This document shows, piece by piece, positions 10,443 to 43,274 of a DNA stretch of 64,000 nucleotides (the first letter of the stretch is position 1; each line of letters starts with the position of its first letter). The DNA comes from Alphaproteobacteria bacterium. Its GTDB lineage: Bacteria > Pseudomonadota > Alphaproteobacteria > Micavibrionales > UBA2020. The stretch lies in NCBI GenBank assembly GCA_021413445.1, contig JAIOQI010000021.1, positions 47,871 through 111,870 on the forward strand, read 5' to 3'. The position numbers were made by a program, and so were the translations under genes. A model generated the notes under the pieces. It saw nothing but the letters and a program-made list of their open reading frames with translations, had not been told where the DNA came from and did no database searches.

Positions 10443-11441
10443 TTATCTTTTTTGCAGGGCTTGTTCGATCAACGGCACGACCTCGGCGGGGTTTTGCCAG
10501 ACAAGATGAATGGAGAAAGTCTGGACCTTCTGGCGCAAGCTGTTCGGCAGCCGCACATGGTCCTTGGTCGTCGTCAGCAGCAGGAGCCCGCGTTCTTCGG
10601 CCTGCGCCACGATCTCCTTCAGGTCTTCCTCGTCGTAGGGGAAATGGTCGGGAAACTCCATCCAGCCCTCGATGACCGCGCCTGCCGCCTCCAGCGTTTC
10701 CTTGAATTTTTGCGGGCGGCCAATGCCGGCAAAGGCGGAAACTTTCTTGCCCCTGATGTCGGGATTGTTTTCATCCGCCGCCAGGCTGGCAGACAGGATG
10801 GGGATATCTGTCAGGCGCCGGACGTATTCGGCGGCGCCGGTCTTGTCTTCGCCGATGATGACGACGGCATCGGCGCGGCTGAGGCCGAATCTTATATTCT
10901 CGCGCAAAGGCCCCGCCGGCATCACTTGTTTGTTGCCCAGGCCGACCACGCCGTCAATCACCAAAAAGGAAAAATCCTTGTAGATGACCGGGTTCTGAAA
11001 CCCGTCATCCATGATGACGATATTGGCGCCGCTGTCCATGGCCTCCTGCGCGCCGAGATGGCGGTTGACGGAAACCCAGGTGGGCGCCTTCTCCACCAGC
11101 AACAGGGCTTCATCCCCCACATCGCTTGCCGTATCGCGGCCGGGACTGACCTGCAAGGGGCCGCTTTCCGTGCCGCCGTAACCGCGGATCAGCAAATGCG
11201 GATTGTAGCCCTTCTCCTGCAAAAGTTCGGCCAGCGACAGGACGACTGGCGTCTTGCCCGCGCCGCCAGCCACCATGTTGCCGACACAAATCACCGGCTT
11301 GACCATCGGCACAGGGAAATAAAGATCGAACCGTTTGCGCACCAGCCAGCCATAGACCCAGCCGGCGGGAAGCAATAGCAGTTTCAGAAAAACTTCGCCG
11401 GCGGTTTTTTGCCGGTACCAGAAAGCGGGGGTGGCGATCAT
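10443..11441 (-). CDS. lpxK: Tetraacyldisaccharide 4-prime-kinase LpxK
   Basis: It has the P-loop VICVGNMVAGGAGKTPVV and IRGYGG, both typical of LpxK. Confidence 0.9.
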   Translation of the reverse strand: MIATPAFWYRQKTAGEVFLKLLLLPAGWVYGWLVRKRFDLYFPVPMVKPVICVGNMVAGGAGKTPVVLSLAELLQEKGYNPHLLIRGYGGTESGPLQVSPGRDTASDVGDEALLLVEKAPTWVSVNRHLGAQEAMDSGANIVIMDDGFQNPVIYKDFSFLVIDGVVGLGNKQVMPAGPLRENIRFGLSRADAVVIIGEDKTGAAEYVRRLTDIPILSASLAADENNPDIRGKKVSAFAGIGRPQKFKETLEAAGAVIEGWMEFPDHFPYDEEDLKEIVAQAEERGLLLLTTTKDHVRLPNSLRQKVQTFSIHLVWQNPAEVVPLIEQALQKR

Positions 11442-12754
11442 GCGGCCACCGCCTTCATTTTACCCATGAAGGGCGCGATCTCGGCGGAGATTTCATCGAC
11501 GACATGGGACTGGCGCAGCGCCCAGTCTTTGGCGGCGGCGGCCATCGGCGCGAAATGCTCCGGATTTTTTAAAGCCTGCGCCAGCACCTGCTTCAACTGG
11601 TGTTCGTCCGCCACCCTTTGTGCGGCGCCCCGGCTTTCAAAATCATTACAAATGGAAATAAAATTAAACATATGGGGCCCGTAAAAAATCTGGCAGCCGA
11701 GTTGCGCCGGCTCGATGGGGTTGTGCCCGCCGTGGGGCACAAACGACCCGCCCATTATACACAAGGATGACAGCCTGTAGAAGAGCCCCATCTCCCCCAG
11801 CGTGTCGGCGACATAAATATCGTCGCTGGCGGCGGGCAGCGCGCCTTGCGAGCGGAGCCCGGCCTTAAGACCAACCCCGGCGGCAAGGGCGGCGATTTCA
11901 GCGCCGCGCTGCGGGTGGCGCGGGACAATAACACTTAACAGCCCGGGCGCCCCGACCCGAAGTTCCTTATGGATACGGCAGGCGATTTCCTCTTCTCCGG
12001 GATGGGTGACGGCCCATAATAAATGCGGCCGCGCGCCGATGGATTGCCGGAGTGCGGCCAGACGCTCCGCGTCACAGGGCAGCGGCGTGGCCGCATATTT
12101 CAAATTGCCGGAGATTTTGGCCTTCACGGCTCCCAGTTGCAGGAGTCTGTCCACTTCAGCCTGATTTTGCCCCAGGCAGAGCTGAAAAGTTTTCAACACC
12201 GCGCCGATAACGCCCTTGAGCAGAAGCCAGCGGCGGAAGGAAGTCTGCGACATGCGGGCATTGAGGAGGATGGCGGGAATCCGGCGCTGCTGGATTCCCA
12301 GCAGCATATTCGGCCAGAATTCCGATTCCGACCAGATCACCAGGTCCGGCCGCCAGTAATCAAGAAAGTTCTCCGTCCAGTCGGGATGATCGACGGGCAA
12401 AAACTGGTGAAAGGCGCGCGGCGGCAGGCGTTCCGCCATCAGCCGCGCCGAGGTCACCGTGCCGGTCGTCACCATAACCCGGATCTCCGGGTAATCGCCG
12501 AGCATCCTCTGGATCAGCACCAGCAGGGATTGGGATTCGCCGACGCTGGCCGCATGAAACCACACCAGCGGCTTGTCTTCCCGCGCCCGCAGCGGGCGGC
12601 CGAGCCGCTCGTTGAAACGCGCCGGGTCTTCCTTGCCCCGCCGCAAGCGGCGCTGCAGATAGGCCCGCAGCACAGGCGTTGCGCTTTTCATCAAATATTT
12701 ATAAAGGGAAACCAGCATAAGCCCATAGATTGGGTGTTTTCCGGGAAAATTCAA
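11438..12754 (-). CDS. waaA: 3-deoxy-D-manno-octulosonic acid (Kdo) transferase WaaA/KdtA
   Basis: It contains WFHAASVGESQS and GGSFVPHGGHNPIEPA, both typical of KdtA. It overlaps the lpxK start. Confidence 0.9.
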   Translation of the reverse strand: MNFPGKHPIYGLMLVSLYKYLMKSATPVLRAYLQRRLRRGKEDPARFNERLGRPLRAREDKPLVWFHAASVGESQSLLVLIQRMLGDYPEIRVMVTTGTVTSARLMAERLPPRAFHQFLPVDHPDWTENFLDYWRPDLVIWSESEFWPNMLLGIQQRRIPAILLNARMSQTSFRRWLLLKGVIGAVLKTFQLCLGQNQAEVDRLLQLGAVKAKISGNLKYAATPLPCDAERLAALRQSIGARPHLLWAVTHPGEEEIACRIHKELRVGAPGLLSVIVPRHPQRGAEIAALAAGVGLKAGLRSQGALPAASDDIYVADTLGEMGLFYRLSSLCIMGGSFVPHGGHNPIEPAQLGCQIFYGPHMFNFISICNDFESRGAAQRVADEHQLKQVLAQALKNPEHFAPMAAAAKDWALRQSHVVDEISAEIAPFMGKMKAVAA

Positions 12755-27479: not shown

Positions 27480-27959
27480 GGCAAGCGTCAGACGAAGATG
27501 CCAGCTTTCCCCCTGAAGTAAAAGAGAAACCCCTCTATCCTTAATAGATATATATAAGAAAGTAGTAGTAGATTGTAGGGCGGTGGACTACGGGGATGAA
27601 AACCAATGTACAGAGTTAACCACACCCCCCTGCCGCGGATTTGGCCAGAGGCTTTGAATAACTTTTGTATGTAGCGCCGGATTTGGCCGGGAGTCTGGTT
27701 TTTCCAGGCGGTGTGAATTGCGGGGATAAACGCTTTTCTGTCAAATATAGTTATCCACACTTCGAATATCCAGAGTCCGTCTCGGCATGAGGCCGGTATC
27801 CTCTTGTTCCGACTCGTGGATTATCCTCCGGTTTTTTTTACACACCTGTTTGTACGCAGGGTTATCTGCCAAGTTATCCACCAGTGGCCGGGGGGCCCGG
27901 TTGCTTTTCATTTTTTTTCCGATAGGATGAAAAGCAGGCCATCAAGGGGTTGGGTTGAT
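27480..27959. other. Candidate chromosomal replication origin (oriC), hemE-adjacent
   Basis: This is a 480 bp non-coding gap next to hemE. It holds one perfect DnaA box TTATCCACA (27751-27759) and two one-mismatch boxes, TTAACCACA (27616-27624) and TTATCCACC (27874-27882). Weaker boxes lie at 27821-27829 and on the minus strand at 27721-27729. There is an AT-rich tract at 27541-27575. Dominant gene orientation switches here, from mostly minus to the left to mostly plus to the right. Confidence 0.6.
27751..27759 (+). promoter_or_regulatory. Perfect consensus DnaA box
   Basis: An exact match to TTATCCACA inside the hemE-proximal intergenic region. Confidence 0.6.
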
Positions 27960-28568
27960 ATGAGCGAAGACTGGAAAAAGCTGGACGTTGAAGGCGCGGC
28001 GCGGGCGTTGAGCGAGATCAATCCGCAGCTGGAACCCATTCCTTTCAGTTCGGACACCACGACGATACGGACCATGAAACTCCCCTTTTACCGGGACTAT
28101 TTGCTCTATGAGCTGACGGACCTTTCCGCCGTTCCCGGCGCGCGCAAATACGCGCTTTACAAGCCGGGCGACGTACATGTGATTAACTGGACCAACCAGC
28201 CGATTTATGAAGTGAACGAAAAAGCGCCCGTGATGCTGAAAGAGAGCACGGTCGTTGATTACGTCAAGTTTTTCTTTGGCTACGTGCGCGGCCGCCATGG
28301 ACGCTTCACCATCATTGAAACGATCGATGACATCCGCTGGCAGATCGACCCCCCGGCGCAGGGCCGCAAGGTGATGCAGGAAATGCTCGAGCCGGTGACC
28401 CTGACCGACCTGGAGCCGGACGGCACCTTTAACCTCGAAGCCTTCATGCTTTTCAAAGATTCCCTATTCAAGACCCAGGTGCATGTCAAAAAGGACGGGC
28501 TGGTCAGCATGTCCAGCGAAGAGCTGAAGATCGAGGGCATGCCGATCTTGCAGGATGTCGCGGTCTAG
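27960..28568 (+). CDS. Conserved-looking hypothetical protein on the origin flank (about 202 aa)
   Basis: I chose the ATG at 27960 (MSEDWKKLDVEG...). The track ORF start at 27804 would run through the DnaA-box region. No domain was recognised. Confidence 0.5.
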   Translation: MSEDWKKLDVEGAARALSEINPQLEPIPFSSDTTTIRTMKLPFYRDYLLYELTDLSAVPGARKYALYKPGDVHVINWTNQPIYEVNEKAPVMLKESTVVDYVKFFFGYVRGRHGRFTIIETIDDIRWQIDPPAQGRKVMQEMLEPVTLTDLEPDGTFNLEAFMLFKDSLFKTQVHVKKDGLVSMSSEELKIEGMPILQDVAV

Positions 28569-28574
28569 GGGGGT

Positions 28575-29633
28575 ATGGGCTTCCTGTTTCAAGAACCTAT
28601 CGGACGTGAAGCGCGCCCCGCATGGGCGGAGGTTCCGCCGGCGCTGGTGGCTCAGCTTCAGGAGCTCCTGAAACAAAAAATCATTCATGCCGATATTGCC
28701 TGGGGCGGCTATTCGCCCTCCGCGACATTCGTGGCGACGCTGGCTTCGTGGGAAAAAGCTTTCATCAAAGGGACCCACCCCGGACAGGACACCCACGGGA
28801 CCCAGATGCTGCGCCAGGAAATCGAGGCCTATCAGACGCTGCCGGACATCCAGAGTTTTTCCCCCGCCTATCTCGGGTGCGTGAGCGATGGCCGTGAAGA
28901 GGGATGGATGCTGGCGGCTTTCGATAGTATCGACACGCTGCCGACCCTGCCCTGGACGGAAGAAAAAATAACCACCGTTTTCAGGCTGCTTTCCCGCCTT
29001 CATTTTTGCGACAAAAAAAATATCCCCCCGGCGCTGCCCCCCGCGCGGGATAAAAACTATATCGAGAAATTTCTCCGCCCCGAGGGCGGCTGGCTGCGCT
29101 TCAGGGACGAGCGGCAGACGGCGGACAAGTTTTTGGCCCTTTTTGAGGATCAGGATGCAGGCAGGGACTGGCTTTCGTCAGCCCTGCCCCGGCTTTGCGA
29201 AAAACAGGCCAAAGCCCATATGACCGGCGGCGCTGTGGGGATGCTCCATCAGGACTTGCGCTCGGACAATATCCTCTTCGACCGGGAGGACAGGGCCTAT
29301 CTGGTGGACTGGGTGAATGCGTGCCAGGGGCCGGTGGTCATGGACCTTGCCCAGTTTCTGCCCGCCGTCAGCGCCGAAAGCGCGTTCGAATGCGGGGCGC
29401 TGCTCGGGTTGTACGAGAAAATATCCGGCGTGAAAATCGACCGGGAGAGTTTGGTGATTGCTCTCGCCTCCGCGTCGGGGCACATGGCCGACAACGCTTA
29501 CCGGGCCGTTCCCGCGAAACTACCGCGGCTGCGCTGGATGCAGAAAAGCGTGCTGTGGGCCATGCTGCAGTGGGCTGTCGTTCTGATGGACATTCCGCCG
29601 CCGCCGCGTTTTACCGGGCCTTATCATGATTAA
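28575..29633 (+). CDS. Phosphotransferase (aminoglycoside/choline kinase-like, APH family) protein
   Basis: It has a kinase-like catalytic loop LHQDLRSDNILF followed by YLVDWVNA, which is the HxDxxxxN ... D pattern. Confidence 0.7.
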   Translation: MGFLFQEPIGREARPAWAEVPPALVAQLQELLKQKIIHADIAWGGYSPSATFVATLASWEKAFIKGTHPGQDTHGTQMLRQEIEAYQTLPDIQSFSPAYLGCVSDGREEGWMLAAFDSIDTLPTLPWTEEKITTVFRLLSRLHFCDKKNIPPALPPARDKNYIEKFLRPEGGWLRFRDERQTADKFLALFEDQDAGRDWLSSALPRLCEKQAKAHMTGGAVGMLHQDLRSDNILFDREDRAYLVDWVNACQGPVVMDLAQFLPAVSAESAFECGALLGLYEKISGVKIDRESLVIALASASGHMADNAYRAVPAKLPRLRWMQKSVLWAMLQWAVVLMDIPPPPRFTGPYHD

Positions 29634-30894
29634 GGCCCTGCTCTGTTCGCGCCATTTCATGCCGCTGTTCATGACCCAGTTCCTGGGTGCGCTGAATGAC
29701 AATATTTTTAAAAACGCGCTGGTGATTTTTGTGCTGTTCGCGCTGGCGCCGCACAATGCCCCGCTTTACGCCACGGCGGCGGCGGGGATATTCATCCTGC
29801 CTTTCGTGCTGTTTTCGGCCCTGGCGGGTTTTTTCTCCGACACCATCGACAAAGCGGCAATCATGCGCGCGGTGAAAGCCGCCGAGATCGCGATCATGCT
29901 GCTGGCCGCCGCCGCCTTTTACCTGCAGAGCGCTTATTTTCTGCTGTTCGTTTTGTTCCTGATGGGAACGCATTCGGCTTTTTTCGGCCCGGCAAAGTAC
30001 TCGATCCTGCCGCAGCACCTGCCGCCGGAAATGCTGGTGGCTGGCAACGGCCTCTTGTCGCTGGGAACTTTTGTGGCGATTTTATTGGGCGCCATCATCG
30101 GCACGCTGGGTATTGCCGGAGAAAACGGCGTGGAAACCATTGCCTTCATATGTCTTGCGGTTGCGGTGGCCGGTTCCTGGTGCAGTTTTTATATTCCCGC
30201 CGCGCCCCCCGCTCCGTCAAATATCGGTCTGTCGCTGCACCCCCTGAAAGACACCGGCAGAATGTTGTCTTTGACTCTCTCCGGCAAAGAGATCCGCCGC
30301 TGCGCCATTGCGATTTCATGGTTCTGGTTTTTGGGCGTCACCTACCTGACGCAGTTCCCCAACCTGGCGGTCCAGGTTTTTCATGCCGATGAAAGCGTGG
30401 TGACGCTGTTTCTGGTGATGTTCACGCTGGGGGTCGCCGCAGGCTCCCTGCTGTGCGGAAAACTTCTTCATGACCGGGTTTCCACCCATCTGGCCTCTTA
30501 CGCTGCCCTGGTTCTGGCGCTTTTCGGCCTGGATTTCTGCGCGGCGGCAAAAAACTATACGCCCTCCGGCGTGGTTCCGGCGAACATCATTGCATTCATC
30601 GCGCAGGGATTTTTGCCCCTGCGCCTGCTTTTCGACCTGTTTATATTGTCCACCGCCGGTGGTGTTTTTTACGTGCCTTTATATGCCCGGGTGCAAAGGC
30701 TCATCCCACTGGAGCGGTGCGCCCGGGTGATGGCGGGCATCGGCTTCCTGAATGCGGTTTTCATGGCGCTTTCCAGCCTTGTGGGCCTGGTTCTTCTGGC
30801 GCTGGGATTCTCCAGCCTTGGCGTGATTTTTGTCAGTGTTTTCATGACATTGGGCGTAGCCCTCTATTGCCGCCCTCCCGGGAAACACGCCTAA
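29626..30894 (+). CDS. MFS transporter, lysophospholipid transporter (LplT)-like
   Basis: 422 aa with about 12 hydrophobic segments. The N-terminal FMPLFMTQFLGALNDNIFKNAL resembles the LplT signature. Confidence 0.7.
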   Translation: MIKALLCSRHFMPLFMTQFLGALNDNIFKNALVIFVLFALAPHNAPLYATAAAGIFILPFVLFSALAGFFSDTIDKAAIMRAVKAAEIAIMLLAAAAFYLQSAYFLLFVLFLMGTHSAFFGPAKYSILPQHLPPEMLVAGNGLLSLGTFVAILLGAIIGTLGIAGENGVETIAFICLAVAVAGSWCSFYIPAAPPAPSNIGLSLHPLKDTGRMLSLTLSGKEIRRCAIAISWFWFLGVTYLTQFPNLAVQVFHADESVVTLFLVMFTLGVAAGSLLCGKLLHDRVSTHLASYAALVLALFGLDFCAAAKNYTPSGVVPANIIAFIAQGFLPLRLLFDLFILSTAGGVFYVPLYARVQRLIPLERCARVMAGIGFLNAVFMALSSLVGLVLLALGFSSLGVIFVSVFMTLGVALYCRPPGKHA

Positions 30895-31125
30895 AAACCC
30901 CCAAACACCCCCAAACACCCCCAGTTTTTCGTAAGATTGTAATTTATATGCTTTTGTATGCCTGGAAGCAATTTATTAACCATCTGTGTTGCATGATGGA
31001 GATAGAGACGAAAGGCAAAGAAATGCCTTCTGTGGGGAAGTTTTGAGGAGCTTTTTTCACGGGGTCGCGAGAGGGTCTAGCGCCTTGGGTACCGCCGGAA
31101 TAAGAACAAGAAGGAGGCATCATTT

Positions 31126-32160
31126 ATGACCAATGACATCGATCGTGATGGCGAGCCTTTAGTCAAGAAACCAAAAACGACGGGGTTTAAAGACACCTCG
31201 AAGCGGCTGCGGCGCGGCAAGGAAAACCATATCGCGCACCGCGCCAGCCTGGACTGGCGCCAGGACCGCGACCGGGTTTGCACCCCGTTTGGCGACGTCG
31301 TTGATTATGTCGATCTTGCCGAATTGAAAGCTGTCGTCATAAAATCCGGCACCGGCGAGGCGCTTTTGTGCGGGGACAGCGCCAGAGGTTTAAATGTCTA
31401 TTATGATTCACAGGTGCCGGTGTCGCAGTTTTACCCGCGGGACAAGGAATGTTTCATCACCCTTAACCCGCACCACACCAAAGGCGAGCTTCTCAATATG
31501 CTGGTGCGCGAACTGCGCCGCGCCTGGCAGTATTATCAGGGTGCCTTGATCAATCCGATGCGTTTTGAGCCGGACGAGGCCATATTGGTCAACCGCGCCC
31601 AGCAGGCTGACGTGCTGATGGCATCGGTCAAGGTAGCCTGGGAGCTGAAGCTGGCGGGCGAGGCGGAAGCCTGGAATTTTATGGCCGGGTCGCCGATGGC
31701 GGATGTGACGCGCGTGTTTGAAATTCATGCCCAGAAAGATTTCCGCACACTGAACAACGGCGAAGCTTCCCGCGCGGCCTACGACAAATTTTTCGAGGAG
31801 AAGCGCACCAAGGCGCATGACAAGCGGATCATCCACCAGATGCTTCTGGATGACCTGGGATACATGAAGGCGCCGCAGAAATTTCCCAAGGTCGGCATGG
31901 ACCTGTTCAGAAAACTGGGCGAGATGCCGTACGGGCGCAACTATCTGTCGATCAGCAGCAAAAAACCGCCGACGGACACGTGCTATTCCACGATCGAGGA
32001 CCGCTCCAACGCCAATTTCCTGTGGTTCATCAAGTTTGAGCGCAGCTTCCAGGAAAAAGAGCAGGAGATGCTGCAGGAATCGGCCAAGGCTTCGGCGAAC
32101 GTCGTTGATTTCACCCGCTGGTCTTCGCAGGCGCGGCGCCAGCAGGGGCCGGGAACCTAG
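31126..32160 (+). CDS. Hypothetical protein, paralogue of the HExxH protein at 42309-43274 but with a degenerate motif (RELRR)
   Basis: A strong RBS GAAGGAGG precedes the ATG. It shares the block I.L.P....L..LV.ELR..WQY.Q......NR...AD with the 42309 gene, but the histidines are replaced (LVRELRRAWQYYQ). Confidence 0.6.
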   Translation: MTNDIDRDGEPLVKKPKTTGFKDTSKRLRRGKENHIAHRASLDWRQDRDRVCTPFGDVVDYVDLAELKAVVIKSGTGEALLCGDSARGLNVYYDSQVPVSQFYPRDKECFITLNPHHTKGELLNMLVRELRRAWQYYQGALINPMRFEPDEAILVNRAQQADVLMASVKVAWELKLAGEAEAWNFMAGSPMADVTRVFEIHAQKDFRTLNNGEASRAAYDKFFEEKRTKAHDKRIIHQMLLDDLGYMKAPQKFPKVGMDLFRKLGEMPYGRNYLSISSKKPPTDTCYSTIEDRSNANFLWFIKFERSFQEKEQEMLQESAKASANVVDFTRWSSQARRQQGPGT

Positions 32161-32262
32161 TTTTATCTGCGTGCACAACCTTACCGATTCGTGTTCCAGA
32201 GGTCAGAAAAAGTCAGGATATTCTTTTCAAGTTATTGAAAAGAAATAAATATCCAGGGTTTA

Positions 32263-32292
32263 TTGACAAAAAAGGCACCACACCTGTATAAT
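32263..32292 (+). promoter_or_regulatory. Near-consensus sigma-70 promoter (TTGACA-N18-TGTATAAT)
   Basis: TTGACA lies at 32263-32268 and TATAAT at 32287-32292, preceded by TG as an extended -10. It sits 34 nt upstream of the ATG at 32326. Confidence 0.6.
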
Positions 32293-32325
32293 ATGTTAAA
32301 TAACACAGAAGAGGATGGACCGGTC

Positions 32326-32634
32326 ATGAAAAAAGATAAATCTTCAGCAATGAGAACTTTGTTCCAGATGGCGGCGATGGCGCTGGCTGTCATCACCGGG
32401 GAGAATCAGGTTTCTGCGGAAAGATCTGCCGGCATCGCTTACGATAATTTCCGCTCCGGCCTGACCCTGCATAACCTGAGGGAGATTTTCAGGAGCCGTG
32501 TTTCATTTGCGCAAAGGACACGCAGTTCGAAAAGACGCCCCGCGCGCCGGCCTGAGCAGGCGCCGAAAGCCAGCACCACCCGCAAGGGTGGAGCGTCTAA
32601 ATTCAAGCGCTATACCGCGAGAAGGGACGTCTAA
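32326..32634 (+). CDS. Small hypothetical protein (102 aa) with a hydrophobic N-terminal segment and a highly basic C-terminal tail
   Basis: The ATG at 32326 is preceded by GAGGA. The sequence reads MKKDKSSAMRTLFQMAAMALAVITG..., and the C-terminus is RTRSSKRRPARRPEQAPKASTTRKGGASKFKRYTARR. The stop overlaps the next ATG in a TAATG arrangement. Confidence 0.45.
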   Translation: MKKDKSSAMRTLFQMAAMALAVITGENQVSAERSAGIAYDNFRSGLTLHNLREIFRSRVSFAQRTRSSKRRPARRPEQAPKASTTRKGGASKFKRYTARRDV

Positions 32635-32984
32635 TGAGCAAACAACCCAATCCAAAAGAAGCCGCGCTGATCGCGGAAATGCAAAAAGCGCTCGAAAAGC
32701 ACATGAAACCGGATGAGCGGGAGGGCGGCCATTATTTCGAGGGCGGAACAGAGGCCGTCTTTCAAGATCTCGCCCGGAAAACGGCCGCCTTGATTGAAGA
32801 GCAGGGAGTCAAGGGAACCTGCAAAACGCTTTTGTCGGTTGCGAGAGAAATGAAAGGGCTTGAGGAGATCGAATGGAATCACGCTAACTCGATAGGTTTT
32901 GCCTTTAAAAAAGCCCTTGGCGCAGAGGCGACGTCCCCGGCAAAATCTAATCCTTTCGCCAAAAAGAATTTTCCCAAACTTTAA
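32634..32984 (+). CDS. Small hypothetical protein (116 aa)
   Basis: It is translationally coupled to the upstream ORF. No family was recognised. Confidence 0.45.
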   Translation: MSKQPNPKEAALIAEMQKALEKHMKPDEREGGHYFEGGTEAVFQDLARKTAALIEEQGVKGTCKTLLSVAREMKGLEEIEWNHANSIGFAFKKALGAEATSPAKSNPFAKKNFPKL

Positions 32985-32998
32985 ATAGTGAGAAAGCC

Positions 32999-33166
32999 AT
33001 GAGCAACCAAGCCAGTGATATATCCCAGGAAGCGCAGGCGGAGCTCGATGCCCTGATGCTCAAGGCGGTGCGCGTTTTTCAGGAGGCTGCCGAAGCGATG
33101 CTGGCGCCGCAGGCCAAAACAAAAAACCAGCCCGCGCCAGCGCCGAAACTCACCTTAAAAATTTAA
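32999..33166 (+). CDS. Possible small ORF (55 aa), below the ORF-track length cutoff
   Basis: The ATG at 32999 is preceded by GTGAGAAAG. It reads MSNQASDISQEAQAELDALMLKAVRVFQEAAEAMLAPQAKTKNQPAPAPKLTLKI, lies on the same strand, and starts 14 nt after the previous stop. Confidence 0.3.
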   Translation: MSNQASDISQEAQAELDALMLKAVRVFQEAAEAMLAPQAKTKNQPAPAPKLTLKI

Positions 33167-33172
33167 AATAAT

Positions 33173-33817
33173 TTACGGCTGCGCATCCAGCAGATTCCCC
33201 TCGTTTTTTTTGTCAAGCCATTCGCGGGCCAGTTGCAGCGCGCGGTCGCGGCGGGTGAGTTGGGTGGTCACGTTGTCACGGTCCTCGATGGCGCGTTTCT
33301 TTTCCGCCCCGTCCGGATAATGCGCGATGGCGATGTGCAGCCACATCAGCGCCTTGACCGCATCCGCCTGAACCCCCTCTCCCGTATAGTAAATAATCCC
33401 CAGGTGATGTTGCGCCAGCGGCCGGTTGGCGTCAGCTGCCTTGTTCAGCCAGAGCAGGGCCTGCTCGGGATCTTTCTGCACGCCCTGGCCGTTCCTGTAC
33501 ATGATGCCGATCAGTTCTTCCGCCTGATCCTGGCCGTTTTTCGCCAGCGGGAGAAGGCGTTTTGCAGCGATGTCGAATTTTCCCTGTTGATAAGCGGTAA
33601 CCAGATCTTCAATGGTCATGAGACCCGACGGATCTTCCTCGGCTTTATTCTCAGGCAGCGCCATGTCCTGTTCTTCCGGCGGGGGGGAGCCGGTTTCCGG
33701 CATCAGGAGGCCGGGCTTGATATTGCTGTATTCATCCAGCGACGGGGCGCTGTCTTCGGCTTGCGCGGAAAGAACGGAGATCATCAGCAGAACGAAAACA
33801 GCGGATAAAAAACGCAT
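33173..33817 (-). CDS. Secreted Sel1-repeat (TPR-like) protein
   Basis: It has a signal peptide MRFLSAVFVLLMISVLSAQA. It also has repeated Sel1-type units (AEELIGIMYRNGQGVQKDPEQALLWLNKAA, LAQHHLGIIYYTGEGVQADAVKALMWLHIA). Confidence 0.8.
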   Translation of the reverse strand: MRFLSAVFVLLMISVLSAQAEDSAPSLDEYSNIKPGLLMPETGSPPPEEQDMALPENKAEEDPSGLMTIEDLVTAYQQGKFDIAAKRLLPLAKNGQDQAEELIGIMYRNGQGVQKDPEQALLWLNKAADANRPLAQHHLGIIYYTGEGVQADAVKALMWLHIAIAHYPDGAEKKRAIEDRDNVTTQLTRRDRALQLAREWLDKKNEGNLLDAQP

Positions 33818-34849: not shown

Positions 34850-35779
34850 GTGGTGAATATCGCCGGCCTCCCCCTGTCGGTCGGCGGGGTGACCGTCAAC
34901 CGTTTTTGCGGTTCCTCGATGCAGTCCATCCATCAGGCCGCCGGCGCCATCCAGATGAACGCCGGCCACGCCTTTATCTGCGCCGGGGTCGAGTCAATGT
35001 CGCGCATCCCGATGGGCGGTTTTAACCCCCTGCCCAACCCGGCGCTGGCGAAAAATTACCCGCAGGCCTATATCAGCATGGGCGAGACCGCTGAAAATCT
35101 TTCCAAAAAATACCAGGTGAGCCGCGACCGCCAGGAAAAATTCGCCCTGTCCTCCCAGCAGAAAGCCACCGCCGCGCGGGCTGGTGGAAAACTGAAGGAG
35201 GAGATTGTGCCTGTCATGAATGGGGAAGGCACCCTTGTGAGCGAGGATGGCTGCATCCGCCCGGAAACGACGGCGGAGGCGCTGGCGGGATTAAAGCCGG
35301 CCTTCGACCAGTTCGGCACCGTGACGGCGGGGACCTCCTCGCCGCTGACGGACGGCGCTTCGGCGACCTTGGTGACGTCCGAGGAATACGCCAAGGCGCA
35401 CGGCCTCAAAATCCTGGCGCGGATCAGGTCCATCGCCGTGACCGGCTGCGCGCCGGAGATCATGGGCATCGGCCCTGTCGAGGCCACCCGCAAGGCGCTG
35501 GAGCGCGCAAAGCTGACCATTAAGGACATTGACATCGCCGAGCTGAACGAAGCCTTCGCCGTGCAGGTCCTGTCCGTGCTGCAGGAGCTGGGGCTGGATG
35601 AGGCGAAAATCAATCTCGATGGCGGCGCAATCGCGCTCGGCCATCCGCTGGGCGCTTCCGGCGCCCGCATCACCGGCAAGGCCGCCAACCTGCTGAAGCG
35701 TGAAGGCAAGCAATTCGCCCTGGCGACAATGTGTATCGGCGGCGGCCAGGGAATCGCGACGGTATTAGAGGCGGCGTGA
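34850..35779 (+). pseudogene. 5-prime-truncated FadA-type 3-ketoacyl-CoA thiolase (lacks about 70 N-terminal residues)
   Basis: The active-site block VNRFCGSSMQ, normally near residue 90, sits at residue about 20 of this ORF. Thiolase-like sequence can be followed back only to about 34838, and an in-frame stop lies at 34823-34825. The prmA 5-prime end occupies the space where the N-terminus would be. The C-terminus (ATMCIGGGQGIATVLE) is intact. Confidence 0.55.
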
Positions 35780-42308: not shown

Positions 42309-43274
42309 GTGAATTTTTTCACCAAATTAAAAAAACGCCTGCAATGGGCGCGGACGCCGGATCAGGAAAAACAGCAGCTGCTGGAGAAAGCCGTCACGCT
42401 GCTGCATTTCGACCCCGACGCGCTGGAACTGTTCAGGATGGCGCAGGCAGACGGCGTTGAAATCAAGTTTTCATCGGGGCTGACCGGTTCCCGGACGGCG
42501 GCGCGGCATGTCCTGAATTTCAACAAGAAGAAGCAATATATAGAAATCTGCCCTTACACGGGGTCCGGCAGGCTGAAAACCCCGGTGATGATCGCGTCCG
42601 ATCTTGTGCACGAGCTGCGCCACTACTGGCAATACAAGCAGTTGGGGGTCACGCCGCAGAACGGAAACCACATCAACAGAAACCCCCGCCTGTCTTTTGT
42701 CTTTAACCGGGTGGCCGAAGCGGATGCTTACGCTTTTCAGGATAAATTCATCAAAACCATGAATGAAACTTCAGATGTTTTTTCGGAGTTTTTGAAGGAG
42801 ATTCCCGCCCCGACGCCCCTGCAGGCGCACCAGATTAACTATGAAGCCAATAAAAAATTTCAAAAATTGCGGGCGAATGACGCGCAGTATCTGCGCGAGC
42901 GGTTTGTCGAGATGCTCAAAAAAGGGGTTCTTTCCCAAAGTTATGACCCGCAGGAGGCGCGCTACCTGCATCTCCGGCACACGTCCTCCCTCGCCGAAAA
43001 AACCGATTTTGACGCTGTAAAACACATTCCGGAACTGACGCTGGCCGATATCAAGAAGGTGTTAAAAGCGGGTGTGGTGAAAAACGCCCCCGGCTATCTC
43101 GGCGACATGAGCGACGACCAGTTCGAAGACCTGGTGCTGGGCAATGCGCACCGCGGCGCATTGGAAGCCGTCAACCTGATGGAAAAATTCAGCAGGGCCG
43201 TGGCCGGCAACGACAACAAAACGGCGAAAGAGCTGCGCCGCCAGGTGAAAGAAAAAATCCATAAACTGAAATAG
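42309..43274 (+). CDS. Hypothetical protein with an HExxH zinc-metallopeptidase-type motif
   Basis: The GTG at 42309 is preceded by GGGGGAG. The motif DLVHELRHYWQYKQ contains HELRH. It is paralogous to the 31126-32160 product, starts 15 nt after the parB stop, and is on the same strand. Confidence 0.6.
   Translation: MNFFTKLKKRLQWARTPDQEKQQLLEKAVTLLHFDPDALELFRMAQADGVEIKFSSGLTGSRTAARHVLNFNKKKQYIEICPYTGSGRLKTPVMIASDLVHELRHYWQYKQLGVTPQNGNHINRNPRLSFVFNRVAEADAYAFQDKFIKTMNETSDVFSEFLKEIPAPTPLQAHQINYEANKKFQKLRANDAQYLRERFVEMLKKGVLSQSYDPQEARYLHLRHTSSLAEKTDFDAVKHIPELTLADIKKVLKAGVVKNAPGYLGDMSDDQFEDLVLGNAHRGALEAVNLMEKFSRAVAGNDNKTAKELRRQVKEKIHKLK

Follow-up and report, generated by a model that had tools for sequence, protein, structure and literature searches.

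Two DUF6782 paralogues in the window

Is a metallopeptidase-like protein that carries arginines in place of its zinc-binding histidines a decaying copy, or does it have a function of its own? This question is raised by a stretch of 64,000 nucleotides (hereafter the window) of contig JAIOQI010000021.1, from an alphaproteobacterium of the Micavibrionales. Two open reading frames (ORFs) in the window encode members of the Pfam family PF20573 (DUF6782). The first, P1, reads RELRR where the second, P2, reads HELRH. We found that the arginines of P1 are kept throughout a large clade, and that P1 is probably a pseudopeptidase that works without zinc, in binding or regulation, through a remodelled cleft rich in arginine. 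The argument turns on the following features.

31126..32160, + strand: P1, a DUF6782-family protein of 344 amino acids (aa) of the histidine-less (R-E-x-x-R) clade, with no signal peptide or transmembrane segment
31507..31521, + strand: codons of RELRR (R128-E129-L130-R131-R132), at the HExxH position of the family
31591..31611, + strand: codons of N156-R157-A158-Q159-Q160-A161-D162 in the second core helix; Q160 stands at the place of the third ligand, and R157 and D162 are invariant family-wide
31999..32061, + strand: codons of D292-E312 (DRSNANFLWFIKFERSFQEKE), the best-conserved stretch among orthologues (entropy 0.03-0.06 bits per site), outside the Pfam model
42309..43274, + strand: P2, a 321-aa DUF6782 paralogue with intact HELRH and E-A-D-A; its GTG start lies 15 nt past the parB stop, and it is the last gene of a gidA-gidB-parA-parB cluster

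P1 has been deposited as K8R48_03150 and P2 as K8R48_03220. The original prediction, made from the letters of the window, held that the two proteins align over a core block and that P1 has Arg for His at the metal-ligand positions. Both statements stood. BLASTP aligned a core of 66 residues (E = 3e-4), and both proteins exceeded the gathering score of PF20573, which is 27 bits: P1 scored 90.1 bits (E = 1.7e-25, profile positions 59-240 of 241) and P2 32.7 bits (E = 5.9e-8). When profiles of the two clades were aligned with hhalign, the probability was 96.5% (E = 7.5e-10, P1 64-165 vs P2 25-142). RELRR fell column for column on HELRH (P2 residues 101-105, nt 42609-42623) and NRAQQAD on NRVAEAD, which places R128 and R132 exactly on the two histidines. 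Neither an insignificant similarity nor a RELRR segment out of register with HELRH was therefore found. The third putative ligand is also gone from P1: residues 155-163 read VNRAQQADV, with Gln160 where P2 (FNRVAEADA, residues 132-140) has the Glu of E-A-D-A (nt 42717-42728).

By these alignments, P1 and P2 are true paralogues of one putative metallopeptidase family. P1 has neither the HExxH nor the third-ligand Glu by which zincins and gluzincins are recognized, HELRH being carried by P2. As its metal ligands are gone, P1 is very probably not a zinc peptidase. It is predicted to be cytoplasmic because it has no signal peptide or transmembrane segment. Its N-terminus had been described as basic and disordered-looking, which agrees with an isoelectric point of 9.4 for residues 1-60 and with a predicted local distance difference test (pLDDT) score below 50 at residues 1-11, 13-16 and 34-44 of the structural model. 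Four hidden Markov models (HMMs) run across the window detected no DUF6782 members beyond P1 and P2. Neither protein had a Pfam match to Peptidase_M78, so that membership of the ImmA/IrrE (M78) family is unsupported by sequence.

Conservation of the replaced residues

P1 had 691 matches in a word index, the best 120 of them at no less than 57% identity, and P2 had 14. Hundreds of P1 orthologues fell in the identity range 57-77%. We also scanned one genome per species for relatives of P1. A total of 261 species genomes matched, and the best 80 were examined as loci and orthologues, with identities down to about 40%.

Among the 120 nearest homologues, the motif was nearly constant (R128 in 118, E129 in 118, R131 in all 120 and R132 in 112). 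Among the 80 species orthologues, E129, R131, R157 and D162 were present in 80/80 and R132 in 79/80. R128 was found in 65/80; most of the others had Q or K, and G and C occurred in some species. HExxH was found in none of the 80, one of which had HELRR and one RELRH. The Arg codons at the motif differed among species (CGC, CGT, CGG, CGA, AGA and AGG), so it is the amino acid itself that has been preserved. The arginines of P1 are, to judge from the sequences, under purifying selection. P1 thus shows what characterizes a pseudopeptidase, namely homology to a peptidase family, replaced ligands and purifying selection, although it is only predicted that the parent family has peptidase activity.

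The simplest alternative is that P1 is a decaying remnant without function, or that its likeness to P2 arose by chance. This could appeal to the replacement of all three metal-ligand positions, and we give it almost no credence. The profile-profile alignment and the Pfam scores above threshold in both proteins contradict chance. The ORF is intact, has a strong ribosome-binding site (RBS) and has its hundreds of orthologues, with invariant motifs despite synonymous codon turnover and with synteny kept in 80 species. Both decay and chance are refuted by these conservation data. The original prediction had called P1 an inactivated pseudo-enzyme copy, and the two genes one active-looking and one degenerate copy. 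The loss of ligands and the paralogy are real. The degeneracy is not supported, since P1 is better conserved than P2, its substitutions are near-invariant in the 80 species, and the loss of His is ancient and clade-wide.

The 14 relatives of P2 diverge fast, yet H101, E102, H105, W107, Q108, R134 and E137-A138-D139-A140 are invariant among them. In P1, residues 292-312 are extremely conserved, which suggests that the D292-E312 stretch is a second, partner-binding surface. We also considered whether P1 has a metal site made of other conserved His or Cys residues and rejected this: H116, H117 and the His of 'WQH' are not conserved, and no further His or Cys is common to the family.

Classes of the family and origin of the His loss

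An exhaustive HMM search with a balanced profile over 1.84 billion representatives yielded 981 DUF6782 members. The classes were compared in the best 150 of these, taken as representatives at 50% identity. A family-wide survey of HExxH loss had been proposed with the original prediction; among these 150, it gave 73 with HExxH, 51 with xExx[R/K] and 27 that were more degenerate. In P1 numbering, H128, E129, H132, Q135, E160 and A163 were 100% invariant in the 73 HExxH representatives. In the 51 xExx[R/K] representatives, E129 and R157 were at 100% and R131 and R132 at 94%, and position 160 had an entropy of 3.37 bits. Seven residues (E129, R131, R157, A161, D162, D232 and Y273) are common to both classes.

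In a rough neighbour-joining tree with a midpoint root, all 76 non-HExxH representatives formed one pure clade, and HExxH forms lay on both sides of the root. This indicates that the His loss was a single ancient event from an HExxH ancestor. With position 160 relaxed while the arginines are fixed, all three presumed ligands were lost jointly, and at the two His positions other residues took over and became fixed. Except for the metal site, the cleft has been retained in this comparison.

The pseudopeptidases known so far come mostly from eukaryotes and are less uniform. The P1 clade is a clean natural experiment in the conversion of a metalloprotease site: one event, two ligands turned into fixed Arg, the third drifting, and the general base kept. 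As an evolutionary observation, the clade is well supported by the sequences compared.

P1 orthologues have already been deposited under the family name, which is 'putative metallopeptidase family' in Pfam and 'DUF6782 family putative metallopeptidase' at NCBI. The name implies a metallopeptidase, whereas the clade of P1, about half of the best 150 representatives, lacks all three presumed zinc ligands. Hundreds of entries so named almost certainly cannot bind zinc as predicted, so for about half of the diversity of the family the annotation is misleading. Our literature search for DUF6782 found no paper on the family, and the literature on Micavibrio and metalloproteases concerned prey proteases, not DUF6782. 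What was already known thus appears to be the Pfam family and deposited hypothetical proteins; the large monophyletic R-E-x-x-R clade and its genomic setting would be new.

Predicted fold

The AlphaFold2 model of full-length P1 had a pLDDT of 67.4. For residues 57-255 alone, the pLDDT was 87.7 and the predicted template modelling (TM) score 0.84. The trimmed model consists of a three-stranded sheet, a long helix with RELRR and a second long helix with NRAQQAD (E-E-E-H-H). Foldseek placed almost only zincins at the top ranks of the PDB (SPRTN with probability 0.98-1.00, the zincin-like 3e11 with 0.92, selecase, PprI/IrrE, MATCAP and M61), with TM-scores of 0.3-0.45. In the region of the strand plus HExxH, the profile of the HExxH clade gave IrrE (E = 0.11, 15 bits) and selecase (E = 0.21) in the PDB, both sub-threshold. 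A minimal zincin core in P1 is therefore likely, though not proven by the model.

The modelled core of sheet, 'HExxH helix' and second helix resembles that of the minimal zincins, i.e. ImmA/IrrE (PprI), selecase/minigluzincins and SprT/SPRTN. Like IrrE/ImmA, the DUF6782 proteins of the window are small, apparently cytoplasmic and stand-alone. Unlike the minimal zincins, P1 has no HExxH, none of its matches to them was significant (E of at least 0.1), and at its C-terminus DUF6782 has a long extra stretch of helices (residues 180-326) that contains an invariant motif. Gluzincins bind their metal through HExxH plus a downstream Glu. The HExxH class of paralogues is arranged much like these thermolysin-type enzymes: the HExxH is invariant, the following helix has an invariant Glu at a distance of 27-35 residues, an invariant Asp lies close by, and there is a conserved Tyr. 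It is no more than a likeness, as there was no significant sequence or structure match to a MEROPS gluzincin family, and P1 fails the motif.

Proposed role of P1

On the binding or regulatory reading, the ancestor of the clade would have lost the whole zinc site once. The first His would have become Arg, Gln or Lys and the second Arg, while the position of the ligand Glu was left free to vary. P1 would have retained the minimal zincin core, the general-base Glu129 and the cleft residues R131, R157, D162, D232 and Y273. Since the loss was followed by fixation of R132 and, for the most part, of R128, what was once the active site seems to have been remodelled into an arginine-rich cleft that is still doing something. 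This cleft (R128, R131, R132 and R157 with E129, D162 and Y273) may bind a peptide or an anionic ligand, with no zinc-dependent hydrolysis, and P1 would act as a cytoplasmic binding or regulatory subunit. P1 has a conserved promoter region of its own, which lies beside the origin of replication and carries a CtrA-type box. The conserved synteny and the fusions between domains suggest a functional tie to an APH-type kinase and a Sel1 protein encoded nearby, and possibly also to the intact HExxH paralogue or paralogues.

Homologues of metallopeptidases without the histidines are known to have binding or regulatory roles, and FtsHi4 (REAAV) has Arg at the first His (PMC11266112). In the pseudopeptidases described there (inactive ADAMs, FtsHi proteins and alpha-MPP), the ligands are replaced, the fold is kept, and active and inactive paralogues coexist, as they do here. 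However, those proteins are eukaryotic or organellar, and their substitutions usually differ among paralogues. The P1 clade is bacterial, its E-L-R-R is almost invariant order-wide, and the general-base Glu is kept.

Several points weigh against this reading. The zincin fold is a consistent ranking in the structure searches rather than a proven assignment: Foldseek against the PDB returned no significant match for either the full-length or the trimmed model (best E = 0.12-0.13), the P1 and P2 sequences gave nothing meaningful against PDB chains, and the profile of the P1 clade had no zincin match in the PDB. That the HExxH members are active peptidases is only predicted. The kept Glu129, D162, D232 and Y273 fit residual or altered catalysis as well as binding. 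P1', a tandem paralogue located 3' of P1 in 64/80 relatives, is absent from this genome, and a model that needs it cannot be general. The Sel1 neighbour is predicted to be exported and P1 to be cytoplasmic, which weakens the case for a direct P1-Sel1 complex. Finally, the CtrA-type box is confined to 30/76 loci, those of the nearer relatives.

The main alternative is that P1 is still an enzyme. Glu129 would work with D162, D232 and Y273, and either the guanidinium groups of R128/R132 (with R131/R157) would replace zinc, serving as the electrophile or stabilising the oxyanion, or another metal would be bound through carboxylates. The substrate of this hydrolysis or transfer reaction would be a peptide or an anionic or phosphorylated compound, perhaps one made by the APH-type kinase. 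E129 is present in 100% of the R class and in all 80 species, and P1', which is plausibly truly dead, has lost this Glu. The replaced positions are fixed and do not drift, E129, R131, R157, D162, D232 and Y273 are retained family-wide, and a kinase with an intact loop is both a conserved neighbour and a fusion partner. However, no zincin that works without a metal is known to us, and some species have Q, K, G or C in place of R128. The kinase gene is missing at about half of the loci, including that of M. aeruginosavorus, and P1 is transcribed separately from it. In addition, the giant fusion proteins described below carry domains of the HExxH type, not of the R type. On balance we regard a surviving enzyme as rather unlikely.

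A still bolder idea, and one that we hold to be improbable, is that the R-E-L-R-R clade is a neofunctionalised zincin. The fixed arginines of the zinc site, with R131, R157, Glu129, D162 and Y273, would form an anion-recognising or metal-independent catalytic centre, perhaps one that reads or processes what the APH-type kinase has phosphorylated. If this were true, an origin-proximal gene with a CtrA-type box would tie that activity to the cell cycle of obligate predators.

Genomic setting of P1

Three neighbours bear on the binding or regulatory reading of P1.

27804..28568, + strand: hyp254, a conserved protein that matches no known family; it leads the hyp254-APH pair upstream of P1
28575..29633, + strand: APH-type kinase with an intact HQDLRSDN catalytic loop; conserved upstream neighbour, coupled to hyp254 and fused to DUF6782 in the giant proteins
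33173..33817, - strand: Sel1-repeat protein with a Sec signal peptide; conserved downstream neighbour, of a repeat family fused to DUF6782 in the giant proteins

The window is an origin-proximal piece of chromosome. Its gene order is hemE(-), a cluster of DnaA boxes, hyp254, the APH-type kinase, an MFS/LplT-like gene, P1, small ORFs, Sel1(-) and prmA(-), followed by thiolase, add, gidA, gidB, parA, parB, P2, holA(-), lptE(-) and leuS(-). The best 80 genomes with P1 all belong to Micavibrio or its relatives and include the complete chromosome of M. aeruginosavorus. NCBI places Micavibrio under Bdellovibrionales, which explains some of the labels of the metagenome-assembled genomes (MAGs). Across the 80 loci, a common frame is kept: hemE, hyp254, [APH], P1, [P1'], Sel1, prmA, thiolase, add and gidAB-parAB, in which the genes in brackets are variable. 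As it was found in 261 species genomes and in a conserved frame, P1 is by comparative evidence a fixed single-locus core gene of Micavibrio-like predators, not a stray duplicate.

Nearly all of the 80 loci have hyp254 upstream of P1. It had no match in Pfam, NCBIfam or PADLOC, and the latter two were likewise uninformative for P1 and P2. The APH gene and hyp254 are translationally coupled, with a gap whose median is 5 bp in 27 genomes. Between hyp254 and P1, the APH gene is missing in about half of the loci.

Some features of the window depart from this frame. The MFS gene (29626-30894) resembles the LplT transporter domain of acyl-ACP-phospholipid acyltransferase fusions. It lies between APH and P1 here only, being found there in 0/80 related loci, and after its stop codon a direct repeat, CCCCCAAACA, occurs twice (30897-30920). 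The thiolase ORF (34850-35779) has only 309 aa, and its Thiolase_N match begins at profile position 70. The thiolase of a close relative has 380 aa, and downstream of it lies a DUF1189 gene that is absent here. The short ORF may represent a truncation or an assembly issue.

The position of oriC beside hemE is classical for alphaproteobacteria. DnaA-box matches were found at 27616 (one mismatch), 27751 (perfect, TTATCCACA) and 27874 (one mismatch), in or next to the intergenic region between the divergent hemE(-) and hyp254(+) (27480-27900). Across the window there were 19 such matches vs 6.5 expected.

The leader of P1 and possible CtrA control

The original prediction pointed to a strong RBS and to a long intergenic region upstream of P1, and both were confirmed.

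30895..31125, + strand: upstream region of P1, with the conserved blocks TTTTTCGTAA at 30925-30934, TTAACCAT at 30976-30983 and CATGATG at 30992-30998, and with the RBS AGGAGG at 31112-31117

The RBS ends 8 nt before the ATG. The region of 231 bp has its counterpart in other genomes, where P1 has its own leader of 170-450 bp; the median gap is 265 bp where APH precedes P1 and 393 bp where hyp254 does. Leaders of genomes that are otherwise unalignable have in common the pattern TT.C.TAA ... GTTAACCA.C-N7-CATGATG. P1 is thus, from comparison of its loci, a transcription unit of its own, separate from hyp254-APH and with a conserved leader. Rfam searches of 30700-33300 gave only a spurious sub-threshold lncRNA match and no known riboswitch or leader.

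A CtrA box reads TTAA-N7-TTAA or the ungapped TTAACCAT, the latter being a CtrA-binding variant; activating sites lie near -35 (PMC6180460). The copy of TTAACCAT in the leader, 150 nt upstream of the ATG, is the sole one in 64 kb. Motifs were counted in 76 P1 loci, and 30 of these had TTAACCA[TC] upstream of P1, with hardly any variation in its distance, vs about 2.5 expected. From these motif counts we infer that CtrA may control P1.

Other DUF6782 forms in the lineage

P1' lies directly 3' of P1 with a median gap of 49 bp (e.g. 10997-11938 in locus L011 and about 11400-12200 in L052). Its motif is x-[A/G]-L-R-[R/D/Q], in which the general-base Glu is gone, and its second helix reads E/C-R-x-x-x-A-D. 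Besides being missing here, it is missing in the nearest relatives. We considered whether the segment 32160-33172 is a disrupted remnant of P1' and rejected this, as tblastn with six P1' proteins matched P1 only. At 32263-32292, where most relatives have P1' or nothing, the segment has a perfect sigma-70 consensus, TTGACA-18-TATAAT. To its 3' side lies a small ORF (ATG, 32326-32634), whose product begins like a signal peptide and has a strongly basic tail, and then a second one (32634-32984); neither had a family match.

Genes of the P2 type were found in the parB-holA interval of three further divergent genomes: L082 and L083, directly after parB, and L086, in which three genes intervene. One of these loci, L082, is a HELRH-HELRH tandem.

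Such tandems bear on a more specific version of the binding or regulatory reading, in which P1 has no catalysis of its own and serves one or more active DUF6782 paralogues as a partner or regulator, be it a decoy, an inhibitor or an activating subunit. It would bind either the substrate of those paralogues or the paralogues themselves, as alpha-MPP pairs with beta-MPP. The pairing of an inactive subunit with an active one has a precedent in alpha-MPP (PMC11266112). Active-looking and inactive-looking paralogues occur in the same genomes, tandem pairs are frequent (P1-P1', HELRH-HELRH in L082, and a 604-aa with a 307-aa protein in L084), and the cleft residues other than the ligands are common to both classes. 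However, P1 and P2 lie 10 kb apart in different transcription units and have very different evolutionary rates. Moreover, residues 292-312, the most conserved element of P1, are weakly conserved in the HExxH class. This specific partnership therefore seems to us a doubtful one.

The lineage also contains giant proteins of 2804 and 2563 aa, which are syntenic and lie between putA and the atp operon (L081 6001-14415 in MAG JAICWS01, and a JGI contig of 271 kb). Both P0234 and P0269 have Sel1 repeats, two HExxH DUF6782 domains and a sub-threshold match to Peptidase_M91 ('effector'), and P0234 has an APH domain as well. P0269 comes from the same MAG as locus L008. The domains of the giants match the neighbours of P1, i.e. 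the APH kinase and Sel1, and therefore the fusions tie the same three families together. In their domain content they look like candidate predation effectors.

With the Glu-less tandem partner, the HELRH tandem duplicates and the fusions of 2,500-2,800 aa, the lineage has more than two forms of the family. The analogy with effector or regulator families drawn in the original prediction is a tentative one. Micavibrio-like bacteria are obligate predators whose biology is poorly understood. P1 as a core gene, P2 as the end of the parAB cluster and the effector-like giant fusions may offer testable entry points to cell-cycle control or predation.

The 604-aa and 307-aa proteins of L084 (7001-9754, in another MAG) are encoded in tandem between mutM and rpsT-dnaA, the former having two DUF6782 domains and the latter being a DUF6782 protein too. 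Being near dnaA, this pair is another tie of DUF6782 to replication-proximal neighbourhoods.

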